Assembly: GCA_041650615.1 (NCBI GenBank)
Contig: JBAZKU010000001.1
Span: forward strand, 319,277-383,276
Direction of reading: 5' to 3'
DNA: 64,000 nt
DNA from: Minisyncoccota bacterium
Lineage (GTDB): Bacteria > Patescibacteriota > Minisyncoccia > Phycocordibacterales > UBA9973
Of this stretch, positions 10,324 through 61,383 are shown piece by piece. Numbering within the stretch: position 1 is the stretch's first letter; each line of letters opens with the position of its first letter. Under the pieces are notes generated by a model. It was not told the DNA's origin. It made no database searches and saw only the letters and a program-made list of their open reading frames with translations. Position numbers and translations under genes: made by a program.

Positions 10324-10341
10324 ATAGGGTTAATAATACAT

Positions 10342-10426
10342 AAAAAAGGGCGAATACAAAAGTTTTCGCAGAGAGCAACTGGATTCTTTTTTGCTCGCCA
10401 GAAAATTTTTGTATTCGCCCTTTTTT
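10342..10426. promoter_or_regulatory. Large perfect inverted repeat (20-bp arms, 45-nt structured spacer) between the KH-domain gene and trmD; terminator/attenuator-like
   Basis: AAAAAAGGGCGAATACAAAA (10342-10361) and TTTTGTATTCGCCCTTTTTT (10407-10426); on the mRNA strand the 3' arm is followed by a U-run ending 16 nt before the trmD AUG; loop has its own small stem (GCGAGCAA/TTGCTC). Confidence 0.45.
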
Positions 10427-10433
10427 AAAAAAA

Positions 10434-24316: not shown

Positions 24317-26233
24317 TTAGCGTATTTGCCAACTTGAATTTTCGCTTATTTTATGGCCTATTTTAGCCATAATTTCGTTTACCTCATCGTCTTTTAAAGT
24401 TCTTTCATAAGACTGGAAAACGAGCCTAAAAGCATATGAAGTTTTTCCATTTTTTGTGAACGAATCAAATATATACGGCTCTTGAATTAAAAGTTTTGTT
24501 CCATTATCTTTTAAAATTTTTCCCAATTTTTTAGGATCTTCTCCTTCCGGCATCCACACAGCAACGTCGCGAGAGATAAATGGATAAATAGACCAAGGTT
24601 TGAATTTCATCGGCAGAATCTTTTTTTCAGGTCCTCGGTTCCCTGGGTCCCCTACCCCAGCCAGACCATTCAAAAAAGTTTCTGCCGATTTCATGTCCTG
24701 AAAAAATTCATCAAGTGTCATTTCTTTTATTCCTTTCTTGTCGCCATAGGCAATATGCATCTCTTCCCCGCTTTTTTTGAAAATAGTTCCAATTTCAAAA
24801 ATTTTTACATCATTCATTTCAAGCAATGGCGCGTTGAGTTGATTTAATTTCAAGCTTTCTTCTAACCCATCGGCTAAATTTGTTCTCAAAAACTTTTTAT
24901 CCGAGGCGGAAGCAAGCACTTCCACTTCTCCTTTGTCTCTGAAACTATAAGTCATTACTTCTGAATATCCTTCATTTAAAAGTTTATTGCGAACCCAAAG
25001 GATTTTATAAAAATCTTCATTTATTTTTGGGGTCCATTTTATTTCAGGCCCGCCTGCATCGTTATGCGAAGCATTTCGGGCAGGTAATTCTCCCTTAATT
25101 CTGTCATAGCCTAAAATTCTAATTACTTCTTCGGATAAATCATGCGGGCCGGTGATATCAAGACGCGACAATGGCACTAAAATTTTAAACCTGCCTGCGC
25201 AGGCAGGTTCGCCATTTTCTTCTTCATATTCAAAATTTAATTTTTCCCACACATTTTCAATTTCTTTTTTTGAAAAAGAAGTGCCTAAACGTTTATTTAT
25301 ATATTCTACCGACACAAAAACAGTATTTTGTTTTGGCTTTACCGGATAAATATCCACAACTTCTTCTACATCCCCTCCTGTTAAATCAACAATTAAATTT
25401 GTCATTTCCTCCATAGTTTGCCCACAGAGGTCGGGAGTTATTTCATTCTCGTATCTTTTTACTGCATCGGTTAGAATCCCGATTTTTTGGGAAGTCTTTC
25501 TGGTAGAAATAGGATTGAAATTGGCAACTTCTATAACTATATTTTTTGTATTATTTTTTACTTCTGCTTTTATTCCTCCTTTTATTCCAGCAATAGCCAA
25601 TGGATCTTTTTCATCAGCTATTATTAAAACTGATTCATCTAAGATAACTTCTTTTTTATCAAGAGTAGTGATTTTTTCTCCTTTTTGGGCATTTCGAACT
25701 ATTATTTTTTCACTCTCCAATTTATCTAAATCAAAACAATGAATTGGCTGGCCCAAATCAAACATCACAAAATTAGCAGCATCCACAAGATTATTTATTG
25801 ATTTTTGTCCTATTACTTCCAATTTTTCTTTTAGCCAATCCGGACTTTCCCCAACTTTTACATTTCTGACAATTCGCCCCATGTAACGCAAGCATTTGTC
25901 GTCTTTTATTTCTATTTCCAGTTTCGAGTCAATGTGGCTTTTCGAATGGTCTGGCCGGGGCTGGGGCCCCGGAGATCCGAGGACCTGAGAAAAACCACTT
26001 GGCGAAGAAATTGGGAGATTAAAAATCGCCGAAATTTCTTTAGCAATTCCAAAATGCGAAAGACAGTCGTGGGCTCTGTCCGGCAAGACTTTAATTTCAA
26101 AAACAGTATCTTTTCCTACTTTTTCTATTTCCTCTACTTCAAAAGAATGAAAAACAATACCCTCGGCGATTTTCTCCGGTTTCGGCAATTTTTCTTTAAA
26201 ATAATTTTGTAGCCAATTGTAAGATATTTTCAT
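24317..26233 (-). CDS. pheT: Phenylalanyl-tRNA synthetase beta subunit (shortened form) carrying an in-frame insert
   Basis: MKISYNWLQNYFK... tRNA-binding N-terminus, B3/4 and B5 regions; ~29-aa low-complexity insertion SSPSGFSQVLGSPGPQPRPDHSKSHIDSK encoded by a GC-rich element. Confidence 0.9.
   Translation of the reverse strand: MKISYNWLQNYFKEKLPKPEKIAEGIVFHSFEVEEIEKVGKDTVFEIKVLPDRAHDCLSHFGIAKEISAIFNLPISSPSGFSQVLGSPGPQPRPDHSKSHIDSKLEIEIKDDKCLRYMGRIVRNVKVGESPDWLKEKLEVIGQKSINNLVDAANFVMFDLGQPIHCFDLDKLESEKIIVRNAQKGEKITTLDKKEVILDESVLIIADEKDPLAIAGIKGGIKAEVKNNTKNIVIEVANFNPISTRKTSQKIGILTDAVKRYENEITPDLCGQTMEEMTNLIVDLTGGDVEEVVDIYPVKPKQNTVFVSVEYINKRLGTSFSKKEIENVWEKLNFEYEEENGEPACAGRFKILVPLSRLDITGPHDLSEEVIRILGYDRIKGELPARNASHNDAGGPEIKWTPKINEDFYKILWVRNKLLNEGYSEVMTYSFRDKGEVEVLASASDKKFLRTNLADGLEESLKLNQLNAPLLEMNDVKIFEIGTIFKKSGEEMHIAYGDKKGIKEMTLDEFFQDMKSAETFLNGLAGVGDPGNRGPEKKILPMKFKPWSIYPFISRDVAVWMPEGEDPKKLGKILKDNGTKLLIQEPYIFDSFTKNGKTSYAFRLVFQSYERTLKDDEVNEIMAKIGHKISENSSWQIR
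25918..26014. mobile_element. GC-rich palindromic in-frame insertion element inside pheT (copy 1 of 2)
   Basis: Core GGTCTGGCCGGGGCTGGGGCCCCGGAGATCCGAGGACCT (25949-25987) identical, except a 1-nt indel, to a segment inside ligA; imperfect terminal inverted repeats CCAGTTTCGAGTCAATGTGGC / GCCACTTGGCGAAGAAATTGG; translated through in frame. Confidence 0.55.
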
Positions 26234-31475: not shown

Positions 31476-33557
31476 TCATAGATTTTTGGACCTCACTAAT
31501 CGCTCCCTAATTTTATCACGATAAAAGTTATAGAGCAATAAAATTATAATGACAGCTAATAAAATCGTTTTCCAATCAACGATGTTCAGCCACCAATACT
31601 TGGTCTTGAGTTCAATATTGACATGGACGCCGCTGCCTTCTTTGACTTGAAATGGCTTACCGTCATAAATGAGATACCCGGGGGTTTCTGCCTTAAGATA
31701 ATAGTAGCCCTCGGGAACCAAAAACGAATAAGTGCCCCTAACATCGGTGATTTGAGGATTCTCCTGTTGATACTCTTTGGCCGGCCACATTTCATATTGT
31801 TTGGTTTCGGGATTCAGCCAGTAGAGAGACACGATGGCACCAGGGATACGGGTTTCTTTGTCGCCGTTCCGCTCATAAATATACCCTTCGGGGTCAACCA
31901 CAGTGGTCAAGCGGATTTCTTTCATTCCGAGTTCTGGGTCGTCAAAATCCATAACCGTTATGATCTCGTACTCGCCGGCAACAACAGGCACATCGATTTC
32001 TGCCGTATAGATGCCATCACCGTCTGGATCGGTATATTCAAATTCCAGCAATACTAGTTTTTCTTCAACCCTAACGGGCTGATCCTGGGTCTTGGCAAAA
32101 GCGGGGTTGGCGAAGATCACGGACGCCAGTAAAGAATTCAACGGAACGTCCACAGAGGTCGCTTGGCTAGCTCTTGCCTTAAAAACCACATATCCCTTGA
32201 CGCTCTTAACGGGTTTATCAGGCTTCATTACTAACTGCAGTGGTTTGCCGGAAACAGTGGTGATCTTCTGTTGAGGTTTCCCTTTATCAGAAATGGAAAG
32301 ATCAATGTTAAAATCAATCAGTTCGCCGCCGGTTTTGGCAAAGACAATTTCTGTCGGTAATTGCTGTTTAATCGCCGGCGATAATTCAACCACTGGAACG
32401 CCTTGGGGAAGAGCAAACTTACCGGGTTCAACTTTAGCTATCGGCAAGCCGGCGCGTTCTGTCAGCCCGGGCAAAGTCAATTTGACCGTTTTCAGCTTAG
32501 CAACATCGGTAATCTTGCTGATGCCGACTTCTTCAAGAATTTTCTCAAGTTCTGGAAACTTTTGAGCAAGATTCCTGATCTCCTTGGGCAAGGGCGCCAA
32601 AACGAATTCTCTGATTGGTTCGCTTGGTAAGAGTTGCCATTTACCCTGAAAAGCTAAAGGTGTTTCTTTAGACACTAATTCTTCAATTGGAATTTCTGGC
32701 GGTTTGGTTTCTTCCTCTAATTTTGGCTTAAATATTTCTGGGATTTTTTTGATTATTCCCGGTATCTGCTCAATAATTAATTTCTCTAATTTTGTTTTTT
32801 CCTTTATTCCCAATTTCTCATTAATAAAATCAAAATCTTCCTGACTAAATAGAGAAGGATATTTTTCCATTATTTGAAGGGCATATTGATAATTACCCAT
32901 CTCAATAAGATTTGAAACTTGACTTTGAATTCCGCCGCCTCCGCTGCCTCCGCCGGAAGAACAACTTTGACTTAAGATCGGACTACCGCCGCTACAGCCG
33001 GAAGGAGATGCAGAAATAATAGCCCTAGTTTGCTGTCCTCCCGAACAGCTACTCCAATCGGAATACGTCCAAGAAGTGCAAACTCTCGCGCTTTGCGGTT
33101 GCCAATCGGTTTTAACTTTGTAATCCCCGTCAAAAATTATCCAGCCGATATTTTCACCCAAAGCCGAGCCGGTAAATTCGCCAGAAGAATTGATAATTAC
33201 TCCTCCATTGGTCGGATTAAATTTTATCCAACCAGTATTTTCTGACCAAGTATAGCCAGACAAATTTCCTTCGCCATCATTTGTAATGTCGCCCAGATAT
33301 ACCCAGCCAATATTTTCACTCAGGGCGTAACCAGACAATCCAGAATCCGTAACATGAACATCACAATTATCACAGCCAAAATTAAACCAGCCGATATTTT
33401 CTCCCCAAGCGTATTTGTAGCCTTCATTATTTGGGTCAATGGTGCCATCGGTAGACGAGGCCAAGGTGGACTTATTAAAAAATGCAAAAAATCCACTTAT
33501 GAGAAGCATTAAAAATAAAACATAAATTAAATTTTTGGTCGGTATCTTCTTATCCAT
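31476..33557 (-). CDS. Large cell-surface protein with N-terminal signal/TM, four GENIGW-type repeats, Cys/Gly-rich linker and C-terminal TM anchor
   Basis: Repeats YAWGENIGWFNFG / YALSENIGWVYLG / YTWSENTGWIKFN / SALGENIGWIIFDG; CSGGQQ...CSGGSP...CSSGGGSGGGG; C-terminal hydrophobic WKTILLAVIIILLLYNFY. Confidence 0.6.
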   Translation of the reverse strand: MDKKIPTKNLIYVLFLMLLISGFFAFFNKSTLASSTDGTIDPNNEGYKYAWGENIGWFNFGCDNCDVHVTDSGLSGYALSENIGWVYLGDITNDGEGNLSGYTWSENTGWIKFNPTNGGVIINSSGEFTGSALGENIGWIIFDGDYKVKTDWQPQSARVCTSWTYSDWSSCSGGQQTRAIISASPSGCSGGSPILSQSCSSGGGSGGGGIQSQVSNLIEMGNYQYALQIMEKYPSLFSQEDFDFINEKLGIKEKTKLEKLIIEQIPGIIKKIPEIFKPKLEEETKPPEIPIEELVSKETPLAFQGKWQLLPSEPIREFVLAPLPKEIRNLAQKFPELEKILEEVGISKITDVAKLKTVKLTLPGLTERAGLPIAKVEPGKFALPQGVPVVELSPAIKQQLPTEIVFAKTGGELIDFNIDLSISDKGKPQQKITTVSGKPLQLVMKPDKPVKSVKGYVVFKARASQATSVDVPLNSLLASVIFANPAFAKTQDQPVRVEEKLVLLEFEYTDPDGDGIYTAEIDVPVVAGEYEIITVMDFDDPELGMKEIRLTTVVDPEGYIYERNGDKETRIPGAIVSLYWLNPETKQYEMWPAKEYQQENPQITDVRGTYSFLVPEGYYYLKAETPGYLIYDGKPFQVKEGSGVHVNIELKTKYWWLNIVDWKTILLAVIIILLLYNFYRDKIRERLVRSKNL

Positions 33558-33695: not shown

Positions 33696-35432
33696 TTACG
33701 GGCGGAAGACGACACGGAACCCGGTGCTATACGTGACATTATTGCTATTGGAGTACGAGCAAGCGTGCCAACCGGCTACCCGTGCAGTACTGTTTAAGCG
33801 CAACTCTGAAAGCCATTCATAAGTATTTACATTGGCAGTAATAACATTGTCTGTTCGACCAATTTGATTACCATAATTTCCATAAGTTATTGAATTTGTG
33901 CCGTTGCCACAAACACCGAAGAAATCGTTAAAAGTTGGCAAGCGTGTCCCTTTCCACTCTAACAACACTTTCGGGGTTAGAGGTCCGTTGTAACAAGTTT
34001 CATAATCTGTCCCGTCGCAAGTTGCGTCTGGTGCGGTATATCCAAAGGCCTCTACCGCTGCACTAGTTAAAAGATTGCGGATACCATCTTTGCAATCAGC
34101 AATCGCCAGAGCGACACTAGCATCATTTCCATAGTCACTGCGTTCTACGACTGTCCCGCTTAAAGAGGTATTAAGCGTTCCCACGCCATCACCGTCAGTA
34201 TCGCCAGAGCATCCGTAATTGCCAAGGAAAGTATTGTCGTTCGCGGTCGCATTATTCCAGAATTTTGTACCAGCTGGGTCGCGACCATTAGTCCCGCTGT
34301 CAGTTTGAACACAAATAGGATCGTCGCTAGTCCCGTCGTAATTACTATCTGCTATCCATGCCCAGCCAGCGGTTGTGCAAACAGATTGATTTAATCCAGA
34401 AATACCAGAAGGAGTATTGGGGTAGGGAGAAAGAGTCCCTGTAGAATCAACACCGAACGCTGTCCCATAACGAACATTGTTTATACTAAGGTTCGTGGCA
34501 TTAAAAGTGCCTCCGCCTGATCCGTCGCCCTCATTGCCGGCCGTAGTTAATACTTGCGCAGGATCATCATTATCACCATAAAGCCACCCCGCAACCAAAT
34601 TACCGATAATTCCAAATATATTAACATCATTTGCAATGTTCTCCGCAACCAAATCAGGGTCCCCAGTCAAAGTGCCTGCCCCCCAATAACCAGCGACGAC
34701 TTCCTGATCCGTTGAACTGGCAGTTAAATTAAAATCGCCGTTGTTAGTCATTGTGCCAGTAGCAGTGGCACCGTTAATCCATACTATTTTGCCAGATAAT
34801 ACATCCGCAACCGTTATATCGTCAGCATCTGTTATACACCATCTATTAGTTCCATCCCCGTCACCATCATAAGTATTAGAAACCAAATTCCCCGTACCAT
34901 CAAAAGTCGCGGTATTGCAAGCAAGATTAAGAGTTCCAGCGTCTAATGTCCAATCGCCCGTTAAATTAGCGGTTTTGCCATTGAATAAATCAGCTACAAC
35001 TGCTGTGCCCTCGCCTTCAGGAGTTAATGTGCCGGTTACTCCAAGATAAGTCGTGTCTTTTTTAACTTGATCAGAGGAAATCAAACCAGCCAAAGTATTG
35101 TAAATCTCTGTTAGGGTATGCCCCGTACCTGCCAATGCATCGGAGAAAGTAAAATCATGGTCTCCTTCATCGCCCGGATCAGTGTTATTAATTATAAAGT
35201 TATAAATCTCAGAAAGCGTATAAAATTTGCCGGACGGTTCACCCGCACCGCTTGGCGGAGTAATTGTGCCAGCATGAACAACTCCGTAAATTACCAAAAC
35301 AGAAATTAAAACAGTAAGCCCGCCTTTGACAGCGTTGAAAAATCGCGGGCTTTTATTCGGGCTCTTGATATTAAAATTTTTTGATTCGCTAGTGGAAACA
35401 TTATGGATTACCCATTGATCTTTTTTTCTCAT
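33696..35432 (-). CDS. Secreted/surface Gly-Thr-Asp-rich protein with N-terminal signal anchor
   Basis: 578 aa; TM LTVLISVLVIYGVV then low-complexity G/T/D/N-rich sequence with scattered Cys pairs; no recognisable catalytic motif. Confidence 0.5.
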   Translation of the reverse strand: MRKKDQWVIHNVSTSESKNFNIKSPNKSPRFFNAVKGGLTVLISVLVIYGVVHAGTITPPSGAGEPSGKFYTLSEIYNFIINNTDPGDEGDHDFTFSDALAGTGHTLTEIYNTLAGLISSDQVKKDTTYLGVTGTLTPEGEGTAVVADLFNGKTANLTGDWTLDAGTLNLACNTATFDGTGNLVSNTYDGDGDGTNRWCITDADDITVADVLSGKIVWINGATATGTMTNNGDFNLTASSTDQEVVAGYWGAGTLTGDPDLVAENIANDVNIFGIIGNLVAGWLYGDNDDPAQVLTTAGNEGDGSGGGTFNATNLSINNVRYGTAFGVDSTGTLSPYPNTPSGISGLNQSVCTTAGWAWIADSNYDGTSDDPICVQTDSGTNGRDPAGTKFWNNATANDNTFLGNYGCSGDTDGDGVGTLNTSLSGTVVERSDYGNDASVALAIADCKDGIRNLLTSAAVEAFGYTAPDATCDGTDYETCYNGPLTPKVLLEWKGTRLPTFNDFFGVCGNGTNSITYGNYGNQIGRTDNVITANVNTYEWLSELRLNSTARVAGWHACSYSNSNNVTYSTGFRVVFRP

Positions 35433-36328: not shown

Positions 36329-38950
<2,622 letters not shown>

Positions 38951-39550: not shown

Positions 39551-40195
39551 TTAAAGCACAACATCTACTGTTCGTTGCGATATTGAAGTTTGTAGTGAAA
39601 AAGGCGTAACAACGTTTTTATAAGTTATGGTTCCGATTAATCTGATTATTATAAACGGTTGCCGCGTATCGCCCAACGGAGGTTCAGCCCCAACTACCGA
39701 AAAGCTGGAAACTAGGTCAATTTTGATTTCGGGAGGGGTAAGCACTGTAAAAGTTCCAGAAGCTCCGCCAGAAACAGATTTTTGAATACTGCCGTCAGAG
39801 AGTATTACATATACCCATTGGTCTCCAAGAGTAGTTTTGAAAGAAATTCCTGCTCCAGTAGCGCAACTATGGGGATTGGAAGCGGTAACATCACCATCAT
39901 CTATGCAGTGATAATCATATCCTGTTCGTAAATTTTTTGACATATCTTCCATAATAAAACTTAAATTATCTATAATGGAACGCATGTTTTGAGATTTCGC
40001 GTGAAGCAAACTGGCATTCAAGAGAGTGCCTACTCCAATCATAATAACTATCAAAAAAAGAGAAATAGCTATCATGGTTTCTATTATGGTAAACCCACAC
40101 ACTAACTTTTTTTTACTTTTAAAAGTTAGTGTGTGGGTAAACCCCCTACTTTTAGTATTAACTTTTTTAAAAAATTTTCTCATATTTTTTTTCAT
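39551..40195 (-). CDS. Pseudopilin with palindromic insert in leader
   Basis: RGF-THTLTFKSKKKLVCGF-TIIETMIAISLF: GFTIIE motif preceded by 16-aa insert. Confidence 0.7.
   Translation of the reverse strand: MKKNMRKFFKKVNTKSRGFTHTLTFKSKKKLVCGFTIIETMIAISLFLIVIMIGVGTLLNASLLHAKSQNMRSIIDNLSFIMEDMSKNLRTGYDYHCIDDGDVTASNPHSCATGAGISFKTTLGDQWVYVILSDGSIQKSVSGGASGTFTVLTPPEIKIDLVSSFSVVGAEPPLGDTRQPFIIIRLIGTITYKNVVTPFSLQTSISQRTVDVVL
40088..40144. mobile_element. In-frame palindromic insert (48 bp incl. one repeat copy) at the G-F-T codons of pseudopilin 39551..40195, flanked by 9-bp direct repeat GGTAAACCC
   Basis: Perfect 17-bp inverted repeat CCCACACACTAACTTTT / AAAAGTTAGTGTGTGGG with 10-nt spacer; direct repeats 40088-96 and 40136-44. 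Confidence 0.6.
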
Positions 40196-44185: not shown

Positions 44186-45244
44186 TTATATCATGCGCTC
44201 AAGACCTTTTGGATTGAGTGAAAATTGATAAGCGCTTTCTATGGTAATTTCTCCGGCGCGAACAAGTTCTGTAAGCGAATGGTTTAAATCTATCATTCCT
44301 GATTCTGCTCCTGTTTCTATTACAACATCAATTTCTTGTGTTCGCTTTTCACGAATCAAGTTGGAAACAGCATTATTATTTAATAATAATTCACAAGCAG
44401 GAATAAGCCCACCGGTAATTCTAGGTATAAGCCTTTGGGAAAAAATACCAAGCAAGCTGGAGGCAAGTTGTAGACGAATTTGATCCTGCTGACTGCCTGG
44501 GAAAGAATCAATAATCCTATCTATTGTTTGCGAAGCATTGTTGGTGTGTAAAGTTGAAAGTACAAGATGTCCGGTTTCGGCGGCGGTTACAGCCGTTGAA
44601 ATCGTTTCAGTGGTACGCATCTCGCCCACCATTATTACATTCACATCTTCTCTAAAAACTGACCTAAGCGCAGTATGAAAATCTTTGGTGTCAATACCGA
44701 CCTCACGCTGGTCAATTATTGATTTATTGGGAGTATAGATGTATTCAATCGGATCTTCAATCGTTATAATGTGGCGCGCTTGTTCATTGTTGATTAAGTT
44801 CACCATAGCTGATAACGTAGTTGACTTACCTTGCCCGACTGGGCCAACTACCAGAAAAAATCCCTGTTTTTTGCGAGCCAATTCCGCAATAATCGGAGGC
44901 AGATGCAGCTCTGAAAGAGATTTGACTTTAGGTACCAATCGAAGGGCAACACTGATTAGACCTTTTTGGAAAAAAGCATTACCTCTAAGGCGCACCTCTC
45001 CTCGAAAATCATAAGAAAAGTCTATTTCTTTGTCTTCTGTAAATTTGCTTAATTTCGTCTTATCCAAAATTTCAGTTAAAATACCAAGTACATCTTCTTT
45101 GTTTAAAACCGAATGCTTTAAGAGAAAAATGAGTTCTCCTGCTACTCGAATAGCCGGAACTTTTCCAACCCCTAAATGCAAATCCGAACCGCCTTCGCGG
45201 ATAACGGTTAAAATAAGTTCTTCAAATTCTTTTTTGTAATCCAT
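44186..45244 (-). CDS. pilT: Twitching-motility retraction ATPase PilT
   Basis: Walker A GPVGQGKSTT, Asp/His boxes, no N-terminal GspE-N domain, 352 aa. Confidence 0.88.
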   Translation of the reverse strand: MDYKKEFEELILTVIREGGSDLHLGVGKVPAIRVAGELIFLLKHSVLNKEDVLGILTEILDKTKLSKFTEDKEIDFSYDFRGEVRLRGNAFFQKGLISVALRLVPKVKSLSELHLPPIIAELARKKQGFFLVVGPVGQGKSTTLSAMVNLINNEQARHIITIEDPIEYIYTPNKSIIDQREVGIDTKDFHTALRSVFREDVNVIMVGEMRTTETISTAVTAAETGHLVLSTLHTNNASQTIDRIIDSFPGSQQDQIRLQLASSLLGIFSQRLIPRITGGLIPACELLLNNNAVSNLIREKRTQEIDVVIETGAESGMIDLNHSLTELVRAGEITIESAYQFSLNPKGLERMI

Positions 45245-45326
45245 CCTGTTATAAATTTACATTAAATTAATAATATTCAATCTATTATACCCCGTTTTTG
45301 ATAATTTCGTTATTTCTAAAAGGATT
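45243..45326 (-). promoter_or_regulatory. Conserved ~85-nt hairpin element immediately 5' of the pilT start codon (copy 1)
   Basis: Arms ATCCTGTTATAAAT (45243-56) / ATTTCTAAAAGGAT (45313-26) with internal CCCCGTTTTTG; strongly similar to element at 48907..48985; 3' arm (mRNA sense) overlaps the AUG. Confidence 0.5.
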
Positions 45327-45426
45327 CATGGTAATTCCCTGTCTACCTCTTAATTATATTACACAACAACCTTTAATAATAGTACTTTGTGGGCAACTTA
45401 TTCAACTTCGGGGTTTAAATAATAAT

Positions 45427-47178
45427 TTACTCATTCTCACTAATGAAATTGAAAACTTCTTTATATGGAATAATGCCATTTATGGCTTTTAACATAGCAT
45501 CTTCTCTCATCAAAAGCATTCCATCTTCACGAGCCACTTTATAAATTTCAGAATCAACTGGATTTTTAAGAATCACTTTCTGCATTTCTTTACCTATTTT
45601 AAACATTTCAAAAATAGCAATACGGCCACGAGTGCCCGATGGGCATTCGGAAGATGGCACTGTATCATACATTTGATCTTTGATCTCAATTTCCTTTTTG
45701 AATTCGTCCGGCAAATCTTTTAGTTCATCTTCGATTTGCAATTTAATACTCGGATCTATGGGGACAAGTCTTCTGGAGGCCGGACAGGTCATTCTGGCCA
45801 AGCGTTGAGCAACAGACAAAATAAGAGTCGGCGCTATAAGATATGGATCAACTCCCATGTCAATTAAGCGAGGAATCGCTCCGATAGCGCTATTTGTGTG
45901 CAGTGTCGATAAAACAAGGTGCCCGGTCAGCGCCGCTTGAATAGCAAGCTGGGCTGTCTCTTTGTCGCGTATCTCTCCAACCATTATCACATCCGGATCC
46001 TGGCGAAGGATAGAGCGCAATCCGGAAGCAAAAGTATATCCAATCTCGGGCATCATTTGAGACTGATTAATGTCGGGCATATGATATTCTACCGGATCTT
46101 CTAGGGAAACGATATTGCTTTTTTCTTTATCAAGTTCATTCATCATTGAATATAGAGTCGTAGATTTTCCAGACCCCGTCGGACCGGTAATCAAAATAAG
46201 TCCATAGGGTTTATCTATTGCTTCTCTAAGCATTTTAAGATTTCTTTTAGATAATCCTAATTGATCCAATGGCTTAACTCCTTTTTCCGAGTCCAAAATA
46301 CGTATCTCCACTTTTTCGCCATAATAAGCAGGCATGGTAGAAACACGAAAATCAATTTTATGTCCATCAAGACTGGTACTGAAAGATCCGTCTTGCGGTT
46401 TTCTTTTTTCATCCAAGCGCAACTTAGCTAAAATTTTTATGCGTGCTACTATCCCGTTGTAAACATTGGACGGTAAGATGATAGCTGTGTAAAGAATACC
46501 ATCCACTCGAAAACGTACTTTAACTTTTTCTCCCGTATTTTCTATATGTATATCTGAAGCATTGCCTTCTATGGCATTACGCAATATAACAGCAACAATT
46601 TTTATAACCGGGGCATCTTCTACTATCTTTGATTCTTCGTTTGCCTTTACATTTTTAATTTCATTATTTAAAGTATTTGCTTCATTTAAACTTTTCGCAT
46701 CTAAGGTTTCATCTTGTTTTAGTTCACCAAGCGCTTCTTCCACCTGAACAGATATCCCTTTATATGTTTCCATAATACTCTTGTAGTCACTGTTTGAAAT
46801 AAGAAAAATTTTAAAAGGAATACCCAGCTTAGCTGAAATAAATTGCAAGGCATCAAGCGCTTGCGTATTTTCTCCATCCAAAATACCAACTTCCAATACT
46901 CCTTCTTTGAATTGAATCGGAGCAAAATGGTAATGTGCGGCCGCATCTTCCGGAATATATTTCAAGGCATCAAAAGATGATTCTTCTGTGCTTATTTTTT
47001 TTATTGGTATTTGCAAATACTCCCCTTTTATCGCAAGTATTTTATCTTCTGGAATACCAAATTCAATAAGAGCTTCATCAATATCTCCGGCATGCTTTTC
47101 CTGGGCAAGATTTTTAATTTCACTTATTTGGCCCTTACTGATTGCGCCCTTTTTAACTAATTCTTCTAAAAAACTCAT
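45427..47178 (-). CDS. pilB: Type IV pilus assembly ATPase PilB (GspE family)
   Basis: N-terminal GspE-N domain, Walker A GPTGSGKSTT, Walker B/His box, 583 aa. Confidence 0.9.
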   Translation of the reverse strand: MSFLEELVKKGAISKGQISEIKNLAQEKHAGDIDEALIEFGIPEDKILAIKGEYLQIPIKKISTEESSFDALKYIPEDAAAHYHFAPIQFKEGVLEVGILDGENTQALDALQFISAKLGIPFKIFLISNSDYKSIMETYKGISVQVEEALGELKQDETLDAKSLNEANTLNNEIKNVKANEESKIVEDAPVIKIVAVILRNAIEGNASDIHIENTGEKVKVRFRVDGILYTAIILPSNVYNGIVARIKILAKLRLDEKRKPQDGSFSTSLDGHKIDFRVSTMPAYYGEKVEIRILDSEKGVKPLDQLGLSKRNLKMLREAIDKPYGLILITGPTGSGKSTTLYSMMNELDKEKSNIVSLEDPVEYHMPDINQSQMMPEIGYTFASGLRSILRQDPDVIMVGEIRDKETAQLAIQAALTGHLVLSTLHTNSAIGAIPRLIDMGVDPYLIAPTLILSVAQRLARMTCPASRRLVPIDPSIKLQIEDELKDLPDEFKKEIEIKDQMYDTVPSSECPSGTRGRIAIFEMFKIGKEMQKVILKNPVDSEIYKVAREDGMLLMREDAMLKAINGIIPYKEVFNFISENE

Positions 47179-47190
47179 AATTAATTTAGT

Positions 47191-47664
47191 TTAAGGAGTT
47201 GAAGGAGTTGAAGGAGTTGAAGGAGTTGAAGGAGTTGAAGGAGTTGAAGGAGTTGAAGGAGTTGAAGGATCGGCCGGTATTGGAAACTCTGAAAGATCTG
47301 CTGAAGAACTTGTAGTCGTAGACGGCGTAAGCACATCAGAACCAATCGGGGCAAAAGGATTTAATCTTCCTTTATCTACTGGAAGAGTAAGTAAAATACT
47401 GGAATCATGTAGATTGATAAAAGATTCATCAGAAAAAATAACATCGTTTAACCCTATATTGTTAACGCTCAATAGCACAGAAAGAAAATTCTGAGCAATT
47501 AAAGAATTTTGGTCTAAAGTTTCTGTACTTGTCGATGTTATATCTCCGGAGGAGGAAATCAAATTCTGTTCTTCTGGTGACTTTTTAATGAAGAAAATAT
47601 AAATCAGAACCAAGATGACCGCAATCGTTGCAAAAATTATTGTGTTTTTTATTTTTGGGGTCAT
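47191..47664 (-). CDS. Membrane-anchored pilus-cluster protein (PilP-like position) ending in (STP)8 repeat
   Basis: N-terminal TM; C-terminus PSTPSTPSTPSTPSTPSTPSTP directly before stop. Confidence 0.5.
   Translation of the reverse strand: MTPKIKNTIIFATIAVILVLIYIFFIKKSPEEQNLISSSGDITSTSTETLDQNSLIAQNFLSVLLSVNNIGLNDVIFSDESFINLHDSSILLTLPVDKGRLNPFAPIGSDVLTPSTTTSSSADLSEFPIPADPSTPSTPSTPSTPSTPSTPSTPSTP
47195..47266. repeat. Perfect tandem repeat, 8 x 9 bp (GGAGTTGAA), encoding (Ser-Thr-Pro)n on the minus strand
   Basis: Eight identical units at the extreme 3' end of CDS 47191..47664. Confidence 0.9.
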
Positions 47665-48264: not shown

Positions 48265-48906
48265 TTAATTTAGCGCACTTCCGCTGTCAAGAAGTGTGCC
48301 GGAAAAATCTTCATTTGTGGCATCAAGCACTTTCTTGTAATTAACAAAATTTTGATCGACCGAAAAATTCAGATCAAAGGTGACATTACCTTTTTCATCA
48401 AGCGATAAATTTGAAAAAACAGGATCAATTATATTTTTATTTGTCGCAAAAAGATCTGCCTGAAGCGCAACAGATAAATAGCCTACAGCAATTCCGCTCA
48501 TATCCACTGCTATTTTTTGACTTTTACTATCATCAAAACTATAACTGAACTTGGTATAACTGACGGTTTTCATTGTAATTGCCTGAAGCGCGCTAAAAAT
48601 GGGAGAAACAGAAATATGGTTATTCAAAATTTGGTTTGCTGCATTTAAACGTTTATCTAAAACTTGGAGCTGAACTATTTTTGAAAGTTCAAAACGGCCT
48701 TCTGCTAAATTAAGATCATTTTCCATCTGTGTAATATTTTTCTTTAAAATTCCGTCATAAAAATACAGGGCGCCTGTCGCAATAATTACAGTAAAAAAAA
48801 TGAAAATAGAAACAACGGTAAAAAGACTGGTGGACTGCGATCCTGCCGCTCGCTCGGCTATTATCGGTTTTTTGGGTATAAAAGATGTTTGAAAATTTTG
48901 CTCCAT
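48265..48906 (-). CDS. pilN: Type IV pilus assembly protein PilN-like
   Basis: Short cytoplasmic N-terminus, single TM (LFTVVSIFIFFTVIIATGALYF), periplasmic coiled coil; immediately downstream of pilM. Confidence 0.6.
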   Translation of the reverse strand: MEQNFQTSFIPKKPIIAERAAGSQSTSLFTVVSIFIFFTVIIATGALYFYDGILKKNITQMENDLNLAEGRFELSKIVQLQVLDKRLNAANQILNNHISVSPIFSALQAITMKTVSYTKFSYSFDDSKSQKIAVDMSGIAVGYLSVALQADLFATNKNIIDPVFSNLSLDEKGNVTFDLNFSVDQNFVNYKKVLDATNEDFSGTLLDSGSALN

Positions 48907-48985
48907 CCCGTTAGAAATTTATTCTTAATTAATAATACTTCATTTCAGTATCCCGTTTTTCAATGTTTGCGTTATTTCTAACGGG
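48907..48985 (-). promoter_or_regulatory. Conserved hairpin element immediately 5' of the pilN start codon (copy 2)
   Basis: Perfect 12-bp inverted repeat CCCGTTAGAAAT (48907-18) / ATTTCTAACGGG (48974-85) with internal CCCGTTTTTC; mRNA-sense 3' arm ends exactly at the AUG. Confidence 0.55.
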
Positions 48986-49013
48986 ATCCATTTTGTTTAT
49001 TATATTATCTCAC

Positions 49014-52133: not shown

Positions 52134-52886
52134 ATGAAAATCAACGTCACAATCATAGGTTTTGGCACAATGGGCAGAGCTATAGCAAAAACACTTTTGA
52201 AGGATTCTTCAATCAAAATTTTTACTATTGATATAGATAAAAAAAACACAAGTGGTATTAAAAAATCCGACTTTATAATATTGGCTGTAAAACCACAAGA
52301 CGCGCAGGAAGCAATTAAGCAATTAATAAAATACGAATTGAATGAAAAAACAATATTAATTTCAATCATGGCTGGTTTTTCCATTAAAAAACTTCTTCGC
52401 TTCTCCGGCCATAAAAAAATTGTAAGAATGATGCCGAACTTAGGCATTTCTGTCGGGGCAGGAATTGCCGTTTGGAAGAAAATAGGTTTATCTAAATCAG
52501 AAACCAAAAAGACAAAAAATTTCATAAATAAAATAACCGAAAATTTTGAAGTAAAAGATGAAAATACTATAAATAAAGTTACAGCCATTTCCGGTAGTGG
52601 TCCGGCCTACTTTTTTCTTTTGGCGGATTGTTTAATTAAAGCTTCAGAAAATCTCGGGTTTACAAAAAATGAAAGCCAAAAACTTATTGAAAAAACTTTT
52701 TTGGCATCTGCTATATTAGGGAAGGATTCTGATTATTCCGCTCTTGTAAAAAAAGTTGCTTCCAAGGGTGGCACAACAGAGGCAGCGCTAAAAATTTTCA
52801 AAAATAAAAATTTTGATAAGATCGTGTCAAAAGCCGTTCTCGCCGCTTATAAAAGAGCTAAGGAAATTTCCCTAAGTCGGACATAG
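52134..52886 (+). CDS. proC: Pyrroline-5-carboxylate reductase (ProC)
   Basis: Rossmann IGFGTMGRAIA; C-terminal dimerisation region SGSGPAYFFLLADCL...GGTTEAAL. Confidence 0.85.
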   Translation: MKINVTIIGFGTMGRAIAKTLLKDSSIKIFTIDIDKKNTSGIKKSDFIILAVKPQDAQEAIKQLIKYELNEKTILISIMAGFSIKKLLRFSGHKKIVRMMPNLGISVGAGIAVWKKIGLSKSETKKTKNFINKITENFEVKDENTINKVTAISGSGPAYFFLLADCLIKASENLGFTKNESQKLIEKTFLASAILGKDSDYSALVKKVASKGGTTEAALKIFKNKNFDKIVSKAVLAAYKRAKEISLSRT

Positions 52887-52913
52887 GGGAATTCCCCTAT
52901 GTCCGACTTAGGG
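52870..52913 (+). promoter_or_regulatory. 44-nt perfect palindrome spanning the proC stop codon and abutting the proA SD
   Basis: CCCTAAGTCGGACATAGGGGAATTCCCCTATGTCCGACTTAGGG; proC TAG at 52884-86 lies in the 5' arm, GGGGAG SD of proA overlaps the 3' arm; no U-run. Confidence 0.6.
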
Positions 52914-55674: not shown

Positions 55675-55772
55675 AAAACTAAAATAATACTTTTTTCGGC
55701 ATACGCAATATTAAATTCATGAACCATTGTCAGGTTCGAGTGCGAGCCGTGAAAAAGTATTATTTTAGTTTT
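55675..55772. repeat. Perfect 21-bp inverted repeat (AAAACTAAAATAATACTTTTT / AAAAAGTATTATTTTAGTTTT) with 56-nt structured spacer between convergent genes
   Basis: Arms at 55675-55695 and 55752-55772; right arm overlaps the stop of CDS 55765..56265; MITE-like or complex bidirectional terminator. Confidence 0.5.
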
Positions 55773-56265
55773 TTATTTTCTCTATGGTAATTTCTGATTT
55801 TGGGTCAAAAGCATCGGGGTCCATTTTGAGGTGAGAAATATATTTTTCTTGAACAACAAAATCGCCTAAGAATTTTAAAAAATCCTCTCTTTTACTTGTT
55901 TCTCCTTTTTCTTCCAAATGTTCAAGCGGATGTGCTTCCGGGGTGTATTCAAAATGTCCGCGAACTTCTCCATCTTTATAAACCCGTAAGTGATATTGAT
56001 CTTGAAAGTCTGCCAGCTTTCTCCAACTCAAAACCTGATCCTGATCTACCCAAGCAATAAAATGATTACCAAAACCCCATTCATTATAAAGATGTTCTTT
56101 TAAGCTTTCCAAGGTTTTGCCGGGGGCTAACCATCCAATATGATATTTCTGTCTCCCCTTTTTGTGCCAAATAATTCCAATCCTAAAAAGAAATTTACGA
56201 GCCGGTAAGAAAAAACTATATACAAAGTCCCAGGTTTTTTGTTTTATTTTATCAAAAAAAGTCAT
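55765..56265 (-). CDS. Hypothetical protein
   Basis: 166 aa ORF, Trp/His-rich, no recognisable motif. Confidence 0.35.
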   Translation of the reverse strand: MTFFDKIKQKTWDFVYSFFLPARKFLFRIGIIWHKKGRQKYHIGWLAPGKTLESLKEHLYNEWGFGNHFIAWVDQDQVLSWRKLADFQDQYHLRVYKDGEVRGHFEYTPEAHPLEHLEEKGETSKREDFLKFLGDFVVQEKYISHLKMDPDAFDPKSEITIEKIKN

Positions 56266-58692: not shown

Positions 58693-61383
58693 TTCATTCA
58701 TCTTCGCTTTCGTCTTGTTCCCCACTAGGCCATCAGCTACCAAACCGTTATCTTTCTGCCATTTCTTCACCACCGCAACAGTTTTAGGACCTAATTTGCC
58801 ATCAACCACTAAACCAAGATTCAAGGCTTGATTCAGGAATCTTTGCAATTCTTTCACTGCTTCACCTTTGCTGCCATTCTTTAAGGTAGAGGTACCGAAG
58901 TTGTAAGCCGAAGGTCCTGAACTTGTTGAAGGAGTAGAAGAAGTTGCACTAGCAGTTGTATTAGTCGAGATTGAAGCTGAACTTGCTGTAACCGTATTGC
59001 CTATGCAAGATTGACCGGTAGTAATGCTAAAACCGGTATTTCTATTGTCACAACCTGGAATAGTAGTAGTGGTAGAAGTGGTAACGTTCCCGGCACAAGC
59101 TTGACCGGTGGTGGTGCTGAAACCACTTGTCCTATTATCACAACCTGGAACGGTAGTTGTATTAGTTAAAGTAGTAGTGGTGATATTAGTAATTGGATTG
59201 GTAAAGACTGTAGTGACAGTAGAACTTCCTCCTCCTCCACCACCTCCTCCTCCAGCAGGAGGAACAGTGGTAGCGACAGTATTGGAAACGGTCACTGAAA
59301 GAGCGGTGGAAGTGGTACTGTTCCCAGCTGCATCTCTAGCTACAGCTGTTAAAGAATGAGCACCATTGTTTGAAGCAGTGGTATTCCAAGTGATTGAATA
59401 TGGAGAAGTAAAATCTTCCTCTCCCAGATTAGTTCCATCCAGTTTGAATTGCACTCCGATTACTCCCACATTATCAGAAGCAGTAGCAGAAATAGTTACA
59501 TTACCAGAGACCGAAGCACTGGCTGTTGGAGCGGTGATGGAAATGGTGGGGGAGGTGGTGTCGGAGACAGGAGGTGGAGCGACCACAAATTCAGACTCAT
59601 AAGCACCTATATCAGGAGAGGTTCCATTGTAAAGGAAACTTACTCCTTCTCCATCAGTCCATTGGATTGATTGATTAAGAGTTATCGTATTGCTGTCATA
59701 GTTCACATTGGTAATTCTAAGAGAAGAATCATTGCCCACTTTTATTAAATCTCCTTCAGCAATTCCAAAACCATCTGTAAAATAACTTGCATCGTTTACC
59801 GCGATAGTTGTTCCATTACCGCTACCAATAGTTGTGGCTAAGAAGGCACCAGCATCAACTGCTGGACTTCCCGACTGAAGATGATAATCGGAGGTAAATA
59901 AAGGATTTTGTTCCAGGCTGTAAGTATCCTTGCCACTGGCTGTAATATATTGGGCTAAAGATAAAGAAGAGCCTAGATATTTAATTGCAACCGGTCGGGT
60001 ATTGTAAAACAATTCATTGTCCGAGGTATAATCGGTGCATTCTACTCCAAAATCTTTTGATGAACTTGTATTGGAGAAAATATTGTTTTTAAGATGAAAT
60101 CCGGTTGAGGGACTATAATAATTCGGCTGGTTATACATCGTGGTCAAACATATACTCATATCCGGCCATGAACTGCTTGCACTACCATTATAATTACTAA
60201 GTGTATTGTGAGCCACAGCTACGTCATGAGAATTTCCATAAATACTCATTCCTTTTGAATTATATAAATTTTCAAAATTATTATTGACAACAATGTTGTT
60301 TCTTAATATCACCCTTCTGCTTATACCAACTAATATACCTGTATCATTACCTGCGGTGTAATTATTTTTTACCACAACATTTATTGAATTATCAACCCAG
60401 ATTCCCGTCTCCCCATGAAAAATTTTAGCGTTGTTTTCACTACGATTCCCTTCCACTACAGCTTTGTCTGTTATATCTTCCAACTGTATCCCTGTCGCAC
60501 CGTTATCATGTGTATAGTTATCCTTAATTAAGATACCTGAAACACCACCCGTCCGTATGCCTTGGCATGCATTATCATATATTTCATTCCCTATAACTGT
60601 TATCCTCTTCGCCCAATAAGTTTGGTCTTCGTTGCCAGTGGGAGTACCACCTGAAAAGGTACTATAATCATACGATACCTCAATACCATGGGTGAAGTCG
60701 GTGCCAGAATATGTCCCTTCCACTTGTCTATTCGAATAGATAGTATTGTTCATGATTGTAGTATCATAAACACGGGAATTGATGAATATTCCATGACTTG
60801 TATTATTGTGTGATAAAGAATTTTTTATAGTGACATAGGATACAGGGTTTCCGTTATTTCCATCAGCACTAATGCCCAAGATATTACCATACGCTTCTAT
60901 CCCATCAATAATAATGTTTGATGAACCGTTGTAGATATATATACCGTATAGTTGATTTGTAACTTTAATACCTTTGAACTGCAAATATTGCTTGTTATTC
61001 ACTTGTATGCCATTCCATGGGTCAGCCCTACCATTACCGCTGATTATTACTGATTCATTATTATAATTCTGATATGTTATATAACTTGAAGAAGTTCCGG
61101 AACCTGCAGGGTAAATCTTTCCGGAATATGTTCCTCCCCTAATATTTATAATATCTCCCGGTGAAAAGGCAGGCATTACGCTAAAACTTTTATAAGCAGA
61201 ACCGTCTGAACCTGTACATGTTCTTGAAGCAATAGAATAGGTATTGGTACAATTATCTGAAAGCTGATTATCAACGTAATAGGTTGCTGCACTTGCTCCC
61301 CTGCCAAACAAAAAACTTCCTCCCAGAAAAATAGTGATAAAAAGTAGAGTTTTCAACAAATTTATCTTTTGTTTTTTAAGCAT
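58681..61383 (-). CDS. Secreted right-handed beta-helix (pectate-lyase-like fold) protein with Ig-like region, poly-Gly linker, Cys-motif repeats and C-terminal peptidoglycan-binding domain
   Basis: Signal peptide; repeated NNxI/YxN beta-helix rungs; PPAGGGGGGGGGSS; duplicated PGCDNR(T/N)(S/T)GFSxTTGQxC(A/I)GN; C-terminal PG_binding_1-like GSKGEAVKELQRFLNQALNLGLVVDGKLGPKT. Confidence 0.65.
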   Translation of the reverse strand: MLKKQKINLLKTLLFITIFLGGSFLFGRGASAATYYVDNQLSDNCTNTYSIASRTCTGSDGSAYKSFSVMPAFSPGDIINIRGGTYSGKIYPAGSGTSSSYITYQNYNNESVIISGNGRADPWNGIQVNNKQYLQFKGIKVTNQLYGIYIYNGSSNIIIDGIEAYGNILGISADGNNGNPVSYVTIKNSLSHNNTSHGIFINSRVYDTTIMNNTIYSNRQVEGTYSGTDFTHGIEVSYDYSTFSGGTPTGNEDQTYWAKRITVIGNEIYDNACQGIRTGGVSGILIKDNYTHDNGATGIQLEDITDKAVVEGNRSENNAKIFHGETGIWVDNSINVVVKNNYTAGNDTGILVGISRRVILRNNIVVNNNFENLYNSKGMSIYGNSHDVAVAHNTLSNYNGSASSSWPDMSICLTTMYNQPNYYSPSTGFHLKNNIFSNTSSSKDFGVECTDYTSDNELFYNTRPVAIKYLGSSLSLAQYITASGKDTYSLEQNPLFTSDYHLQSGSPAVDAGAFLATTIGSGNGTTIAVNDASYFTDGFGIAEGDLIKVGNDSSLRITNVNYDSNTITLNQSIQWTDGEGVSFLYNGTSPDIGAYESEFVVAPPPVSDTTSPTISITAPTASASVSGNVTISATASDNVGVIGVQFKLDGTNLGEEDFTSPYSITWNTTASNNGAHSLTAVARDAAGNSTTSTALSVTVSNTVATTVPPAGGGGGGGGGSSTVTTVFTNPITNITTTTLTNTTTVPGCDNRTSGFSTTTGQACAGNVTTSTTTTIPGCDNRNTGFSITTGQSCIGNTVTASSASISTNTTASATSSTPSTSSGPSAYNFGTSTLKNGSKGEAVKELQRFLNQALNLGLVVDGKLGPKTVAVVKKWQKDNGLVADGLVGNKTKAKMNESVR

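Follow-up and report, generated by a model that had tools for sequence, protein, structure and literature searches.

A family of hairpin-forming repeats within conserved genes of candidate phyla radiation bacteria resembles Rickettsia palindromic elements

Three copies of a GC-rich repeat in pheT and ligA

We examined a 64,000-nt stretch of DNA (the window; positions 319,277 to 383,276 of contig JBAZKU010000001.1, assembly GCA_041650615.1) from a bacterium of the candidate phyla radiation (CPR), in which a short, GC-rich, hairpin-forming repeat lies in frame within pheT and ligA. The window has a G+C content of 36.6% and a coding density of ~0.93, and PheT homologues place its source among the Nomurabacteria/Paceibacteria. 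Homologues and precomputed Pfam domains identify the two host genes, both on the minus strand. One is pheT (24317–26233), encoding a phenylalanine–tRNA ligase beta subunit of 638 aa, which bears two copies of the repeat (A and B) together with two other small in-frame palindromes. The other is ligA (36329–38479), encoding an NAD-dependent DNA ligase of 716 aa, which bears one copy (C) and an unrelated in-frame palindrome of 36 nt; its product is 100% identical to protein P0121.

The original prediction, made from the letters of the window alone, described a strikingly GC-rich core embedded once in each gene, the two occurrences differing by a 1-nt indel. Both occurrences are present, although the first lies 1 nt from where it had been placed, and the cores of copies A and C are separated by one substitution as well as the 1-nt indel. 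A 21-mer common to the two occurs at 2 positions in the window, where 100 shuffles gave an expectation of 0.00. The compositional contrast is as described, with 75–77% G+C in the cores against 36.6% for the window, and the pheT and ligA open reading frames (ORFs) run through copies A and C without a stop.

Copy A is a full hairpin element at pheT site 1 (25916–26017, plus strand, antisense to the gene; covariance model score 80.0 bits, E 1e-14), translated as ISSPSGFSQVLGSPGPQPRPDHSKSHIDSK. Its core, GGTCTGGCCGGGGCTGGGGCCCCGGAGATCCGAGGACCT, occupies 25948–25986 of the plus strand with 77% G+C and consists of GGTCTGG, an apical hairpin CCGGGGCTGGGGCCCCGG, AGAT, and CCGAGGACC(T); the peptide encoded here in pheT is SSPSGFSQVLGSPGPQPRPDHSKSHIDSK, as first given. 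Copy C, also a full hairpin element, lies at 37053–37155 on the plus strand, antisense to ligA (61.1 bits), in the loop of the ligase zinc finger, with the core GGTCTGGCCGGGGTTCGGGGCCCCGGAGATCCGAGGACCT at 37085–37124 of the same strand.

Only these two copies had been recognized, but a third, diverged copy is present. Copy B, at pheT site 2, spans 24598–24699 on the minus strand, in the sense of the gene (96.9 bits), and is translated as SAETFLNGLAGVGDPGNRGPEKKILPMK, encoding FLNGLAGVGDPGNRGPEKK; its core, GGTCTGGCTGGGGTAGGGGACCCAGGGAACCGAGGACCT, lies at 24629–24667 of the minus strand. It forms an inverted repeat of copy A within the same gene, with a core that is ~85% identical. The first 38 nt of the copy B core (GGTCTGG...CCGAGGACC) are identical to the core found at the other pheT site, site 1, in another species (locus L001). 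Orthologous counterparts of copy B exist at loci L004, L037, L089, and L102 and in proteins P0001 and P0006. With 85 family members as its basis, our covariance model R1 picks out just these three copies in the window (96.9, 80.0, and 61.1 bits), the next best match scoring 20.9 bits.

Each of the three copies is read in a different frame or orientation, giving VLGSPGPQPRPDH for copy A, NGLAGVGDPGNRGPE for copy B, and a third reading in ligA, so no common peptide is involved. Predicted peptides encoded by inserts include VLGSPGPQPRPDHSK and NGLAGVGDPGNR. PheT homologues have two insertion hot spots, and some relatives carry related inserts in either orientation. Many PheT orthologues lack the site-1 insert, which agrees with the claim that this stretch is extra; they keep a native 16-aa loop instead, so the insert is not a simple addition of 97 nt but a partial replacement with a net gain of 13 aa. 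An AlphaFold2 model of PheT built from 23 sequences reached a mean predicted local distance difference test score of 58.5; the inserts (residues 78–103 and 520–546) scored low, as did much of the protein, so the model carries no information on their surface exposure.

Two small GC-rich palindromic inserts elsewhere in pheT, both in frame, lie at 25046–25081 and 25184–25207 (GCCCGAAATGCTTCGCATAACGATGCAGGCGGGCCT, peptide ARNASHNDAGGP; AACCTGCCTGCGCAGGCAGGTT, peptide EPACAGR). PheT orthologues lack them, and a similar peptide, GGPARNATHSVAGG, occurs at another PheT position in protein P0037, which hints at a further repeat family.

Distribution of the family

Scanning one genome per species with the pattern GAATGGTCTGG-N(10–40)-CCGAGGACCTGA brought up at least 118 further loci, distributed over at least 83 species-level genomes (assemblies), all of them Patescibacteria among the matches listed. 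The sequence available to us comprised the 64 kb of the source genome and, around the other copies, stretches of up to 8 kb. Using a looser regular expression, we placed 140 copies in register. The same family pattern had 0 matches in viral contigs, and there is thus no sign of a phage vector. In 757 kb from 100 loci, R1 found 117 copies, ~17 of them beyond the copy that had brought in each locus, which suggests a density of roughly one copy per 20–40 kb. The family has so far been found only in Paceibacteria/Nomurabacteria-like CPR bacteria. The open-access literature yielded no description joining CPR, Patescibacteria, or Parcubacteria with palindromic, miniature inverted-repeat transposable element (MITE), Rickettsia palindromic element (RPE), or in-frame terms, and the family is apparently undescribed so far.

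This breadth bears on whether the element could be an artefact of assembly or binning, in which chimeric reads or a GC-rich contaminant were joined to an AT-rich genome. The window does come from a metagenome-assembled genome, and the change in GC content at the element is sharp. The same in-frame element nevertheless occurs at orthologous sites in metagenome-assembled genomes from many independent studies and assemblers, as well as in independently called proteins of several databases, and we consider an artefact extremely improbable.

Distribution and reading frame also weigh on the possibility that no mobile element exists, and that local template-switch hairpins or gene conversion of a functional peptide motif account for what is seen. 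Template switching can make a hairpin in a single event (PMC10710096), and some outer arms are inverted copies of adjacent native sequence. A near-identical core of 38–40 nt cannot, however, have originated separately at dozens of sites in unrelated genes and spacers across 83 species, and its use in six frame and orientation classes means that there is no common peptide to convert. One arm type (peptide SPDAFAQVLGSP..PDHSQKHTGSA) moreover recurs with the core in many unrelated genes. We therefore judge this account highly unlikely. In the terms in which the original prediction could have failed, the core is not unique to two sites or explained by a functional peptide motif, being found in at least 83 genomes and in several frames; nor do all relatives share the same extra residues without a nucleotide-level repeat, since empty orthologues exist and the core is repeated.

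Architecture and strand-specific fold

The element is a hairpin-forming repeat of ~75–115 nt. Folded as single-stranded DNA, stretches of 95–97 nt at copies A, C, and B gave z scores of −3.5, −4.3, and −6.3, with 0/200 shuffles as good; the segment 25918–26014, for which RNA folding had been proposed as a check, reached −21.2 kcal/mol as DNA (z −3.5, again 0/200 shuffles as good). The flanks of the core do pair, as expected of the imperfect terminal inverted repeats initially described, but the conserved part is the center of the hairpin and its arms are specific to each copy. The paired flanks accordingly differ among the three copies, those of copy B, for example, reading ATCGGCAGAA.CTTTTTT ... 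AAAAAAAG.ATTCTGCCGAT.

Along the strand that we call the top strand, the plan is a variable distal stem, cttttNN-GAAT, GGTCTGG, the apex, (A/G)GA(A/T), CCGAGGACC, TGA-N'N'aaaag, and the complementary distal stem. The conserved core is asymmetric and carries an invariant T·G wobble and purine bulges. Below it, a basal stem of ~15–25 bp has a copy-specific sequence with arms that remain complementary; above it, the apical module, 9–45 nt long, is exchangeable and comes in several discrete types, some of them hairpins and some not.

Pairing of the stem is maintained as its sequence changes. In an alignment of 85 copies, standard pairs occupied 90.2% of cells, compared with 69.8% for shuffled partners and 57–58% for partners slid by one column, and all 15 of the 15 basal pairs had changes on both sides. 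Covariation extends to the conserved stem GGTC/GACC, which diverged copies carry as GTTC/GAAC or AGTC/GACT, and compensatory changes also separate orthologous copies, as in the arms of L113 and L049 and in TTAGCT/AGCTAA versus TTGGCC/GGCCAA.

A G·T pair on one strand is an A·C mismatch on the other, and the two kinds are far from balanced in the basal stem: G·T/T·G occurred 91 times and A·C/C·A 29 times (an indicative p of 1e-8). The excess has the same direction in copies antisense to their gene (56:19), in sense copies (15:7), and in non-genic copies (20:3). Since the asymmetry is the same whatever the direction of the gene, the top strand is the strand whose fold is preserved. Known deamination biases would predict the opposite sign in the antisense class, and we therefore read the asymmetry as selection, with the reservation that the copies are not independent of one another.

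The core did not correspond to a catalogued RNA. At the gathering threshold, Rfam reported only two tRNAs in the window; at E values up to 10, the pheT region gave nothing better than E 0.3 and the element itself nothing better than E 2.9. Judged by eye, the loop geometry of the core did not suit a hammerhead, a hairpin ribozyme, a kink-turn, or a loop E. An intrinsic terminator was likewise rejected, the three window copies lying inside ORFs with no T run after them; some non-genic copies do sit just past stop codons.

Genic location, frame, and orientation

Stop-free frames of at least 150 codons contain 108 of the 140 copies (77%). Set against the coding density of the window (~0.93), this share indicates a location in genes that is somewhat depleted and still the majority. 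All six frame/orientation classes are used: opp/2 accounts for 59 copies, same/0 for 22, opp/0 for 18, and the others for 9, and the 59 copies of the dominant class share the reading ..QVLGSP..PDHS... Core length ranges from 25 to 61 nt, and no genic copy breaks the frame of its host.

The remaining 32 copies are non-genic. The 30 with a large ORF within ~150 nt all adjoin the ends of separate ORFs, and none of ten neighboring proteins that we inspected by eye, including RecA-, FtsK-, UvrC-, and SecF-like proteins, belongs to a gene split by the element. Because the frame is kept despite the varied core length, and because the non-genic copies inspected split no gene, translation of the inserts is the only fitting reading; genic copies are evidently translated as extra loop residues.

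These observations tell against an intron-like alternative, in which the hairpin would be excised from the mRNA or bypassed by the ribosome and the peptides never made. Its attractions are a strong, compact stem-loop and a location in essential genes, one of them ligA, where the element separates the cysteine pairs of the zinc finger, and CPR bacteria are known for insertions in their rRNA genes. All 108 of 108 genic copies, however, are stop-free and keep the frame with cores of 25–61 nt, where about one third would be expected to do so if they were not translated. Most are also antisense, so that the mRNA holds the complement of the strand with the wobble signature, and no Rfam ribozyme or intron matches. 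We find this alternative very improbable.

Among genic copies, 74% have their top strand antisense to the host gene; among 28 scorable non-genic copies, it runs antisense to the neighboring genes in 23 (82%), with 5 opposite. Two TGA triplets on the top strand account for part of the genic bias and for none of the non-genic bias. GC skew, taken as a proxy for the replication strand, follows gene orientation, so replication and transcription are not separable by skew.

Several non-genic copies lie ~30 nt past a stop codon, and one such site, 3' of a RecA-like gene, is occupied in three genomes (copies in the spacer just downstream at L025 6880–7419; L062 5361–5397; L114 3651–3687 and 4804–5303). 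In two of these genomes, copies also flank the next small gene. This persistent site could matter for transcript ends.

Conservation of the core at the nucleotide level

Among codons that specify the same residue at five orthologous sites, third-position identity within the element was 0.86–0.98 in four of the five groups and 0.75 in the fifth, values to which the exact search pattern contributed in part; the rest of the host gene showed 0.49–0.58. The interior 22 nt, which the pattern leaves unconstrained, were 20–22/22 identical in the pheT site-2 group, and this interior is likewise conserved in the three orthologous groups whose apex has not been replaced. Either direct selection acts on the core, or homogenization or replacement of copies is frequent.

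Direct selection would suit a host-selected, cis-acting structured motif, the core being a site for protein binding or processing on single-stranded DNA or on RNA of top-strand sense, with the history of insertion secondary. Candidate roles are chromosome organization, replication or repair, and RNA processing, with copies kept by selection site by site. Conservation of the core at synonymous positions of orthologous sites where the host gene is saturated speaks for such a role, as do the wobble pairs and invariant T·G on one strand, compensatory pairing even at the ends of the stem, the persistence of copies downstream of recA in several genomes, and an orientation bias outside coding sequence (23 versus 5). 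Yet copies are freely gained and lost between close relatives, and any one site is empty in many related genomes; the positions of the copies resemble permissive protein loops and follow no regular genomic pattern; apex and arms are swapped regardless of site; and no associated protein is known. On balance, we think a host motif of this kind unlikely.

Gain, loss, and rearrangement at individual sites

Comparison of host proteins among all loci by tblastn gave 152 filled/empty comparisons, from which we retained 48 copies with a best clean partner. The hosts are PheS and PheT together with LeuRS-, KsgA-, UvrA/B/C/D-, IscS-, TrmD-like, and HD-domain proteins, names that, apart from PheS and PheT, were read by eye from conserved motifs with no family library behind them. 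The same loops have been struck repeatedly, with differing arms, frames, and orientations.

The ligA pair is the most exact, and it bears out the alignment check that had been suggested, as do the many PheT orthologues without the site-1 insert. LigA of L001 reads KRNTGS|LETSVAYYC, and the window protein adds 25 residues at the bar with otherwise almost identical flanks, corresponding to a plus-strand segment of exactly 75 nt, or 25 codons, at 37071–37145. The boundary of this segment slides by 3 nt in an AAA/TTT repeat. The empty site in L001 is itself a palindrome, CGGAAGTTT-GG-AAACTTCCG, most simply a deletion footprint that keeps the outermost arms. L001 is a related contig of 338 kb; between its positions 12000 and 16500, the calls for gyrB and thrS are broken into series of short pieces, which look like long-read indel errors and not real pseudogenes, and frames there need caution.

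We surveyed 120 LigA homologues, in which the minimal zinc-finger loop has 24 residues; copy C sits in this loop, between the two cysteine pairs. The element occurs in the same frame in many lineages of 64–83% identity, is flipped or has another arm type elsewhere, and is replaced by the RNTGS|LETS form in a few close relatives. Being common to orthologues of 64–83% identity, the ligA copy is, on this comparison of sequences, old and not recent.

Other recurrent inserts, unrelated to the core, occupy the same LigA loop, for example ISSGLTLPGVPGGTHT(V/I)QK and a direct repeat, KRSDLKNSKRSDL. Homologues with other loop inserts are P0128, P0159, P0160, P0176, P0211, P0227, and P0234, and P0130, P0137, P0187, and P0209, and the loop is a general hot spot for several insert families. 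Precomputed Pfam annotation gives the zinc-finger domain PF03119 for part of the LigA proteins and omits it for the rest; by eye, short, uninterrupted loops tend to retain it and insert-bearing loops tend to lose it, while the window LigA retains it. The element may thus affect automated domain annotation.

Elsewhere in ligA, a perfect 36-nt palindrome, GCGAGGCAAGACCTAACGCGTTAGGTCTTGCCTCGC, lies in frame at 37709–37760, and its 12 residues are missing from LigA of L001. It has no further copy in the window or in 120 loci, which led us to exclude it from the family, and it could represent an in-frame hairpin insert of another sort.

Footprints are not confined to the RNTGS|LETS form of LigA: one-arm remnants occur in the LeuRS-like protein of L039 (ASPDTST) and in PheS of L084 (NAPDS). 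At a UvrA-like site, copies in both orientations have a common arm motif, GAGCAGAA, and for that reason the asymmetric center was probably flipped in place. In the KLENQKQ group the arms were kept (14/16) and the apex was replaced (11–14/22). One arm type, GCCGAGCCTGTATGCTTTTGCGAAT... (also GCCGAGCCTGTATGC...), the one read as SPDAFAQVLGSP..PDHSQKHTGSA, recurs in unrelated genes as noted above, which indicates that arms can travel with the element.

Two loci offer a glimpse of how an arm may arise. In L113, at a UvrB-like site, and L033, at a UvrC-like site, the outer arm on the upstream side of the gene is native coding sequence, kept as protein with other codons in empty orthologues (SASG(N/Q), SGNQS), and the other arm, within the inserted segment, is an inverted copy of the native one, a perfect 15/15 complement in L113. 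Template switching is a documented route to perfect hairpins in one event (PMC10710096), and growth of the stem by this route is plausible from the sequence of these arms. For stems reaching past the inserted segment we relied on cases checked by hand, these two loci and the UvrA-like site.

Interpretation and mechanism

We assign a probability of about 0.6 to the reading that the element is an RPE-like family of intragenic palindromic hairpin repeats of CPR bacteria, spread by a DNA-level process acting on the folded top strand. Under this proposal, the element would spread, or would once have spread, by such a process on the single-stranded top strand, with a putative trans-acting protein recognizing the conserved core. 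Insertions would survive only where they keep the frame and fall in permissive surface loops, and the two arms would evolve in concert. Template switching, with adjacent native sequence copied in inverted form, may lengthen some stems; the center would flip through recombination between the arms; and copies would be lost by deletion across the stem, leaving short palindromic or one-arm footprints.

Several points weigh against this proposal. A Pfam scan of 20 ORFs of the window brought up housekeeping and pilus genes alone, with neither a transposase or integrase nor an HUH enzyme or reverse transcriptase among them, and none of the ten proteins beside clustered copies was evidently a transposase by eye; because only fragments of genomes were seen, the absence of a mobilizing gene means little. 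There is no consensus outside columns 22–80 of the alignment, so there is no terminal inverted repeat consensus, and the only candidate target duplication is the ambiguous 3-nt TTT/AAA of the ligA pair, none being evident in other filled/empty pairs. The antisense bias does not fit a simple lagging-strand-template model. Old copies, such as those in ligA, keep a near-identical core in orthologues of 64–83% identity, which is unexpected of a decaying selfish repeat and fits host function or ongoing homogenization as well. Most copies were ascertained by an exact 23-nt pattern, which inflates the apparent conservation of the core, and the statistics count related copies as independent, so that p-values are merely indicative. 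Finally, the derivation of arms from the target concerns few cases and can be turned round: the ancestor may have been an old, full hairpin that lost one arm by deletion in relatives.

A bolder version is possible though doubtful, namely that the element is a mobile hairpin defined by its structure. An enzyme would read nothing but the asymmetric core of the top strand in its folded form, acting at the foot of any stem; template switching of neighboring native sequence would rebuild or lengthen the stem site by site, and the center would flip; or else the core would be a domesticated host signal for recognition of single strands. If true, this would amount to a way of moving DNA that has not been described in bacteria, operating inside essential CPR genes, and loops would be continually added to and removed from CPR core proteins.

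Comparison with known elements

The resemblance to RPEs that had been proposed holds for behavior, given in-frame repeats in unrelated genes and filled and empty orthologues, and very probably does not extend to membership of the RPE families. RPE-1 to RPE-10 are in-frame palindromes in Rickettsia housekeeping genes (Ogata et al. 2000, 2002, as summarized in PMC10969869), ~150 bp long, each family encoding one conserved peptide (PMC10969869). Like them, the CPR repeats are short and palindromic, sit in small genomes in frame within unrelated housekeeping genes, and give the host protein a loop; neither group has a known transposase, and in both the insertions appear compatible with fold and function. 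The differences are considerable. The host lineage is CPR/Paceibacteria and not Rickettsia; the CPR element has 75–115 nt, is read in all six frame/orientation classes, and has no fixed peptide; only its central core is conserved, with a copy-specific stem and a modular apex, whereas the known families have common ends; and its center occurs in both orientations at one site, with strand-specific wobbles as evidence for a folded single strand. With Patescibacteria as hosts, the CPR repeats are very unlikely to belong to the RPEs by descent.

MITEs (Correia, ERIC, BOX, RUP, and others; PMC10969869) are small, non-autonomous hairpin repeats, and they share with the CPR family repetition, hairpin formation, and occasional intragenic positions with in-frame fusions. 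They are defined by terminal inverted repeats common to all copies, target-site duplications, and kinship to an insertion sequence (PMC10969869). In the CPR family, by contrast, termini differ between copies, arms are complementary only within a copy, and 77% of copies are intragenic; a parent insertion sequence was not found among the 20 window ORFs (Pfam) or the ten proteins by copies (by eye).

The structure recalls repetitive extragenic palindromic (REP) sequences and attC sites, both recognized as folded single strands, yet their defining features fail where they can be tested. REPs and REPINs, mobilized by the IS200/IS605-like HUH enzymes called REP-associated tyrosine transposases (RAYTs), are imperfect palindromes whose active form is presumed to be a folded single strand, recognized by shape and a few conserved bases. 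They too lack terminal repeats and show an orientation bias; they have no target duplications, and the CPR family has none evident beyond the ambiguous TTT/AAA in ligA. They are extragenic, however, occurring as units of 20–40 nt or doublets of ~100 nt with a conserved 5' tetranucleotide, and the RAYT gene is flanked by REPs. In the CPR family, 77% of copies are intragenic and the predominant strand goes against a simple lagging-strand-template rule; no RAYT was seen in the small part of any genome examined. An attC site is likewise a structure-defined hairpin with little sequence conservation, strand-marking extrahelical bases, and a variable terminal structure of widely ranging length, and it is recombined as a folded single strand. 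It flanks cassettes in arrays beside an integrase and carries RYYYAAC/GTTRRRY boxes, whereas the boxes here are GAATGGTCTGG and CCGAGGACCTGA and the copies lie in housekeeping genes, not between cassettes. Fungal mitochondrial genomes contain mobile GC clusters and double-hairpin elements, GC-rich palindromes that lie in AT-rich DNA inside protein and rRNA genes, sometimes in frame; with a different genetic system and different sequences, these may serve as an analogy only.

What is known in kind, then, is behavior that matches RPEs; what is new is the lineage, the size, a conserved center with free arms, the use of all frames, exchange of the apex, flipping of the center, and a strand-specific fold. 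Palindromic repeats that sit in frame in essential genes have been a curiosity known almost solely from Rickettsia, with the question of their movement open for 25 years. The CPR family amounts to a second, independent, and much larger natural experiment in at least 83 species, in which dozens of conserved proteins have been struck repeatedly at the same loops and filled, empty, flipped, and decayed states can be compared. Its conserved core, covarying stem, and strand-specific wobbles are handles for finding a binding protein and an enzyme. The family also bears on the annotation of CPR genomes, in which domain matches such as that to the LigA zinc finger may disappear at sites of the element, on heterogeneity of protein length in CPR bacteria, and on the origin of new loops in otherwise streamlined proteomes.

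Other features of the window

AT-rich, near-perfect hairpins with stems of 18–27 bp lie between ORFs at 10331–10430, 40091–40140, 52866–52913, and 55676–55775, one of them reading CCCTAAGTCGGACATAGGGGAATTCCCCTATGTCCGACTTAGGG. They are unrelated to the GC-rich family and score 19–21 bits with the covariance model merely as hairpins.

The most GC-rich part of the window (0.42–0.43) coincides with two minus-strand ORFs, 31476–33557 (693 aa) and 33696–35432 (578 aa), that have no Pfam match. Within the type IV pilus cluster, a tandem array at 47179–47287, with ~9 copies of the 9-nt unit AGTTGAAGG, fills the gap between the ORFs at 45427–47178 and 47191–47664 and enters the 3' end of the latter; a weaker echo occurs at 58906–58960. 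A 90-nt AT-rich sequence is also present twice between type IV pilus genes, at 45240–45329 and 48902–48991, with 71% identity between its two occurrences, and may be a repeated regulatory or leader region.

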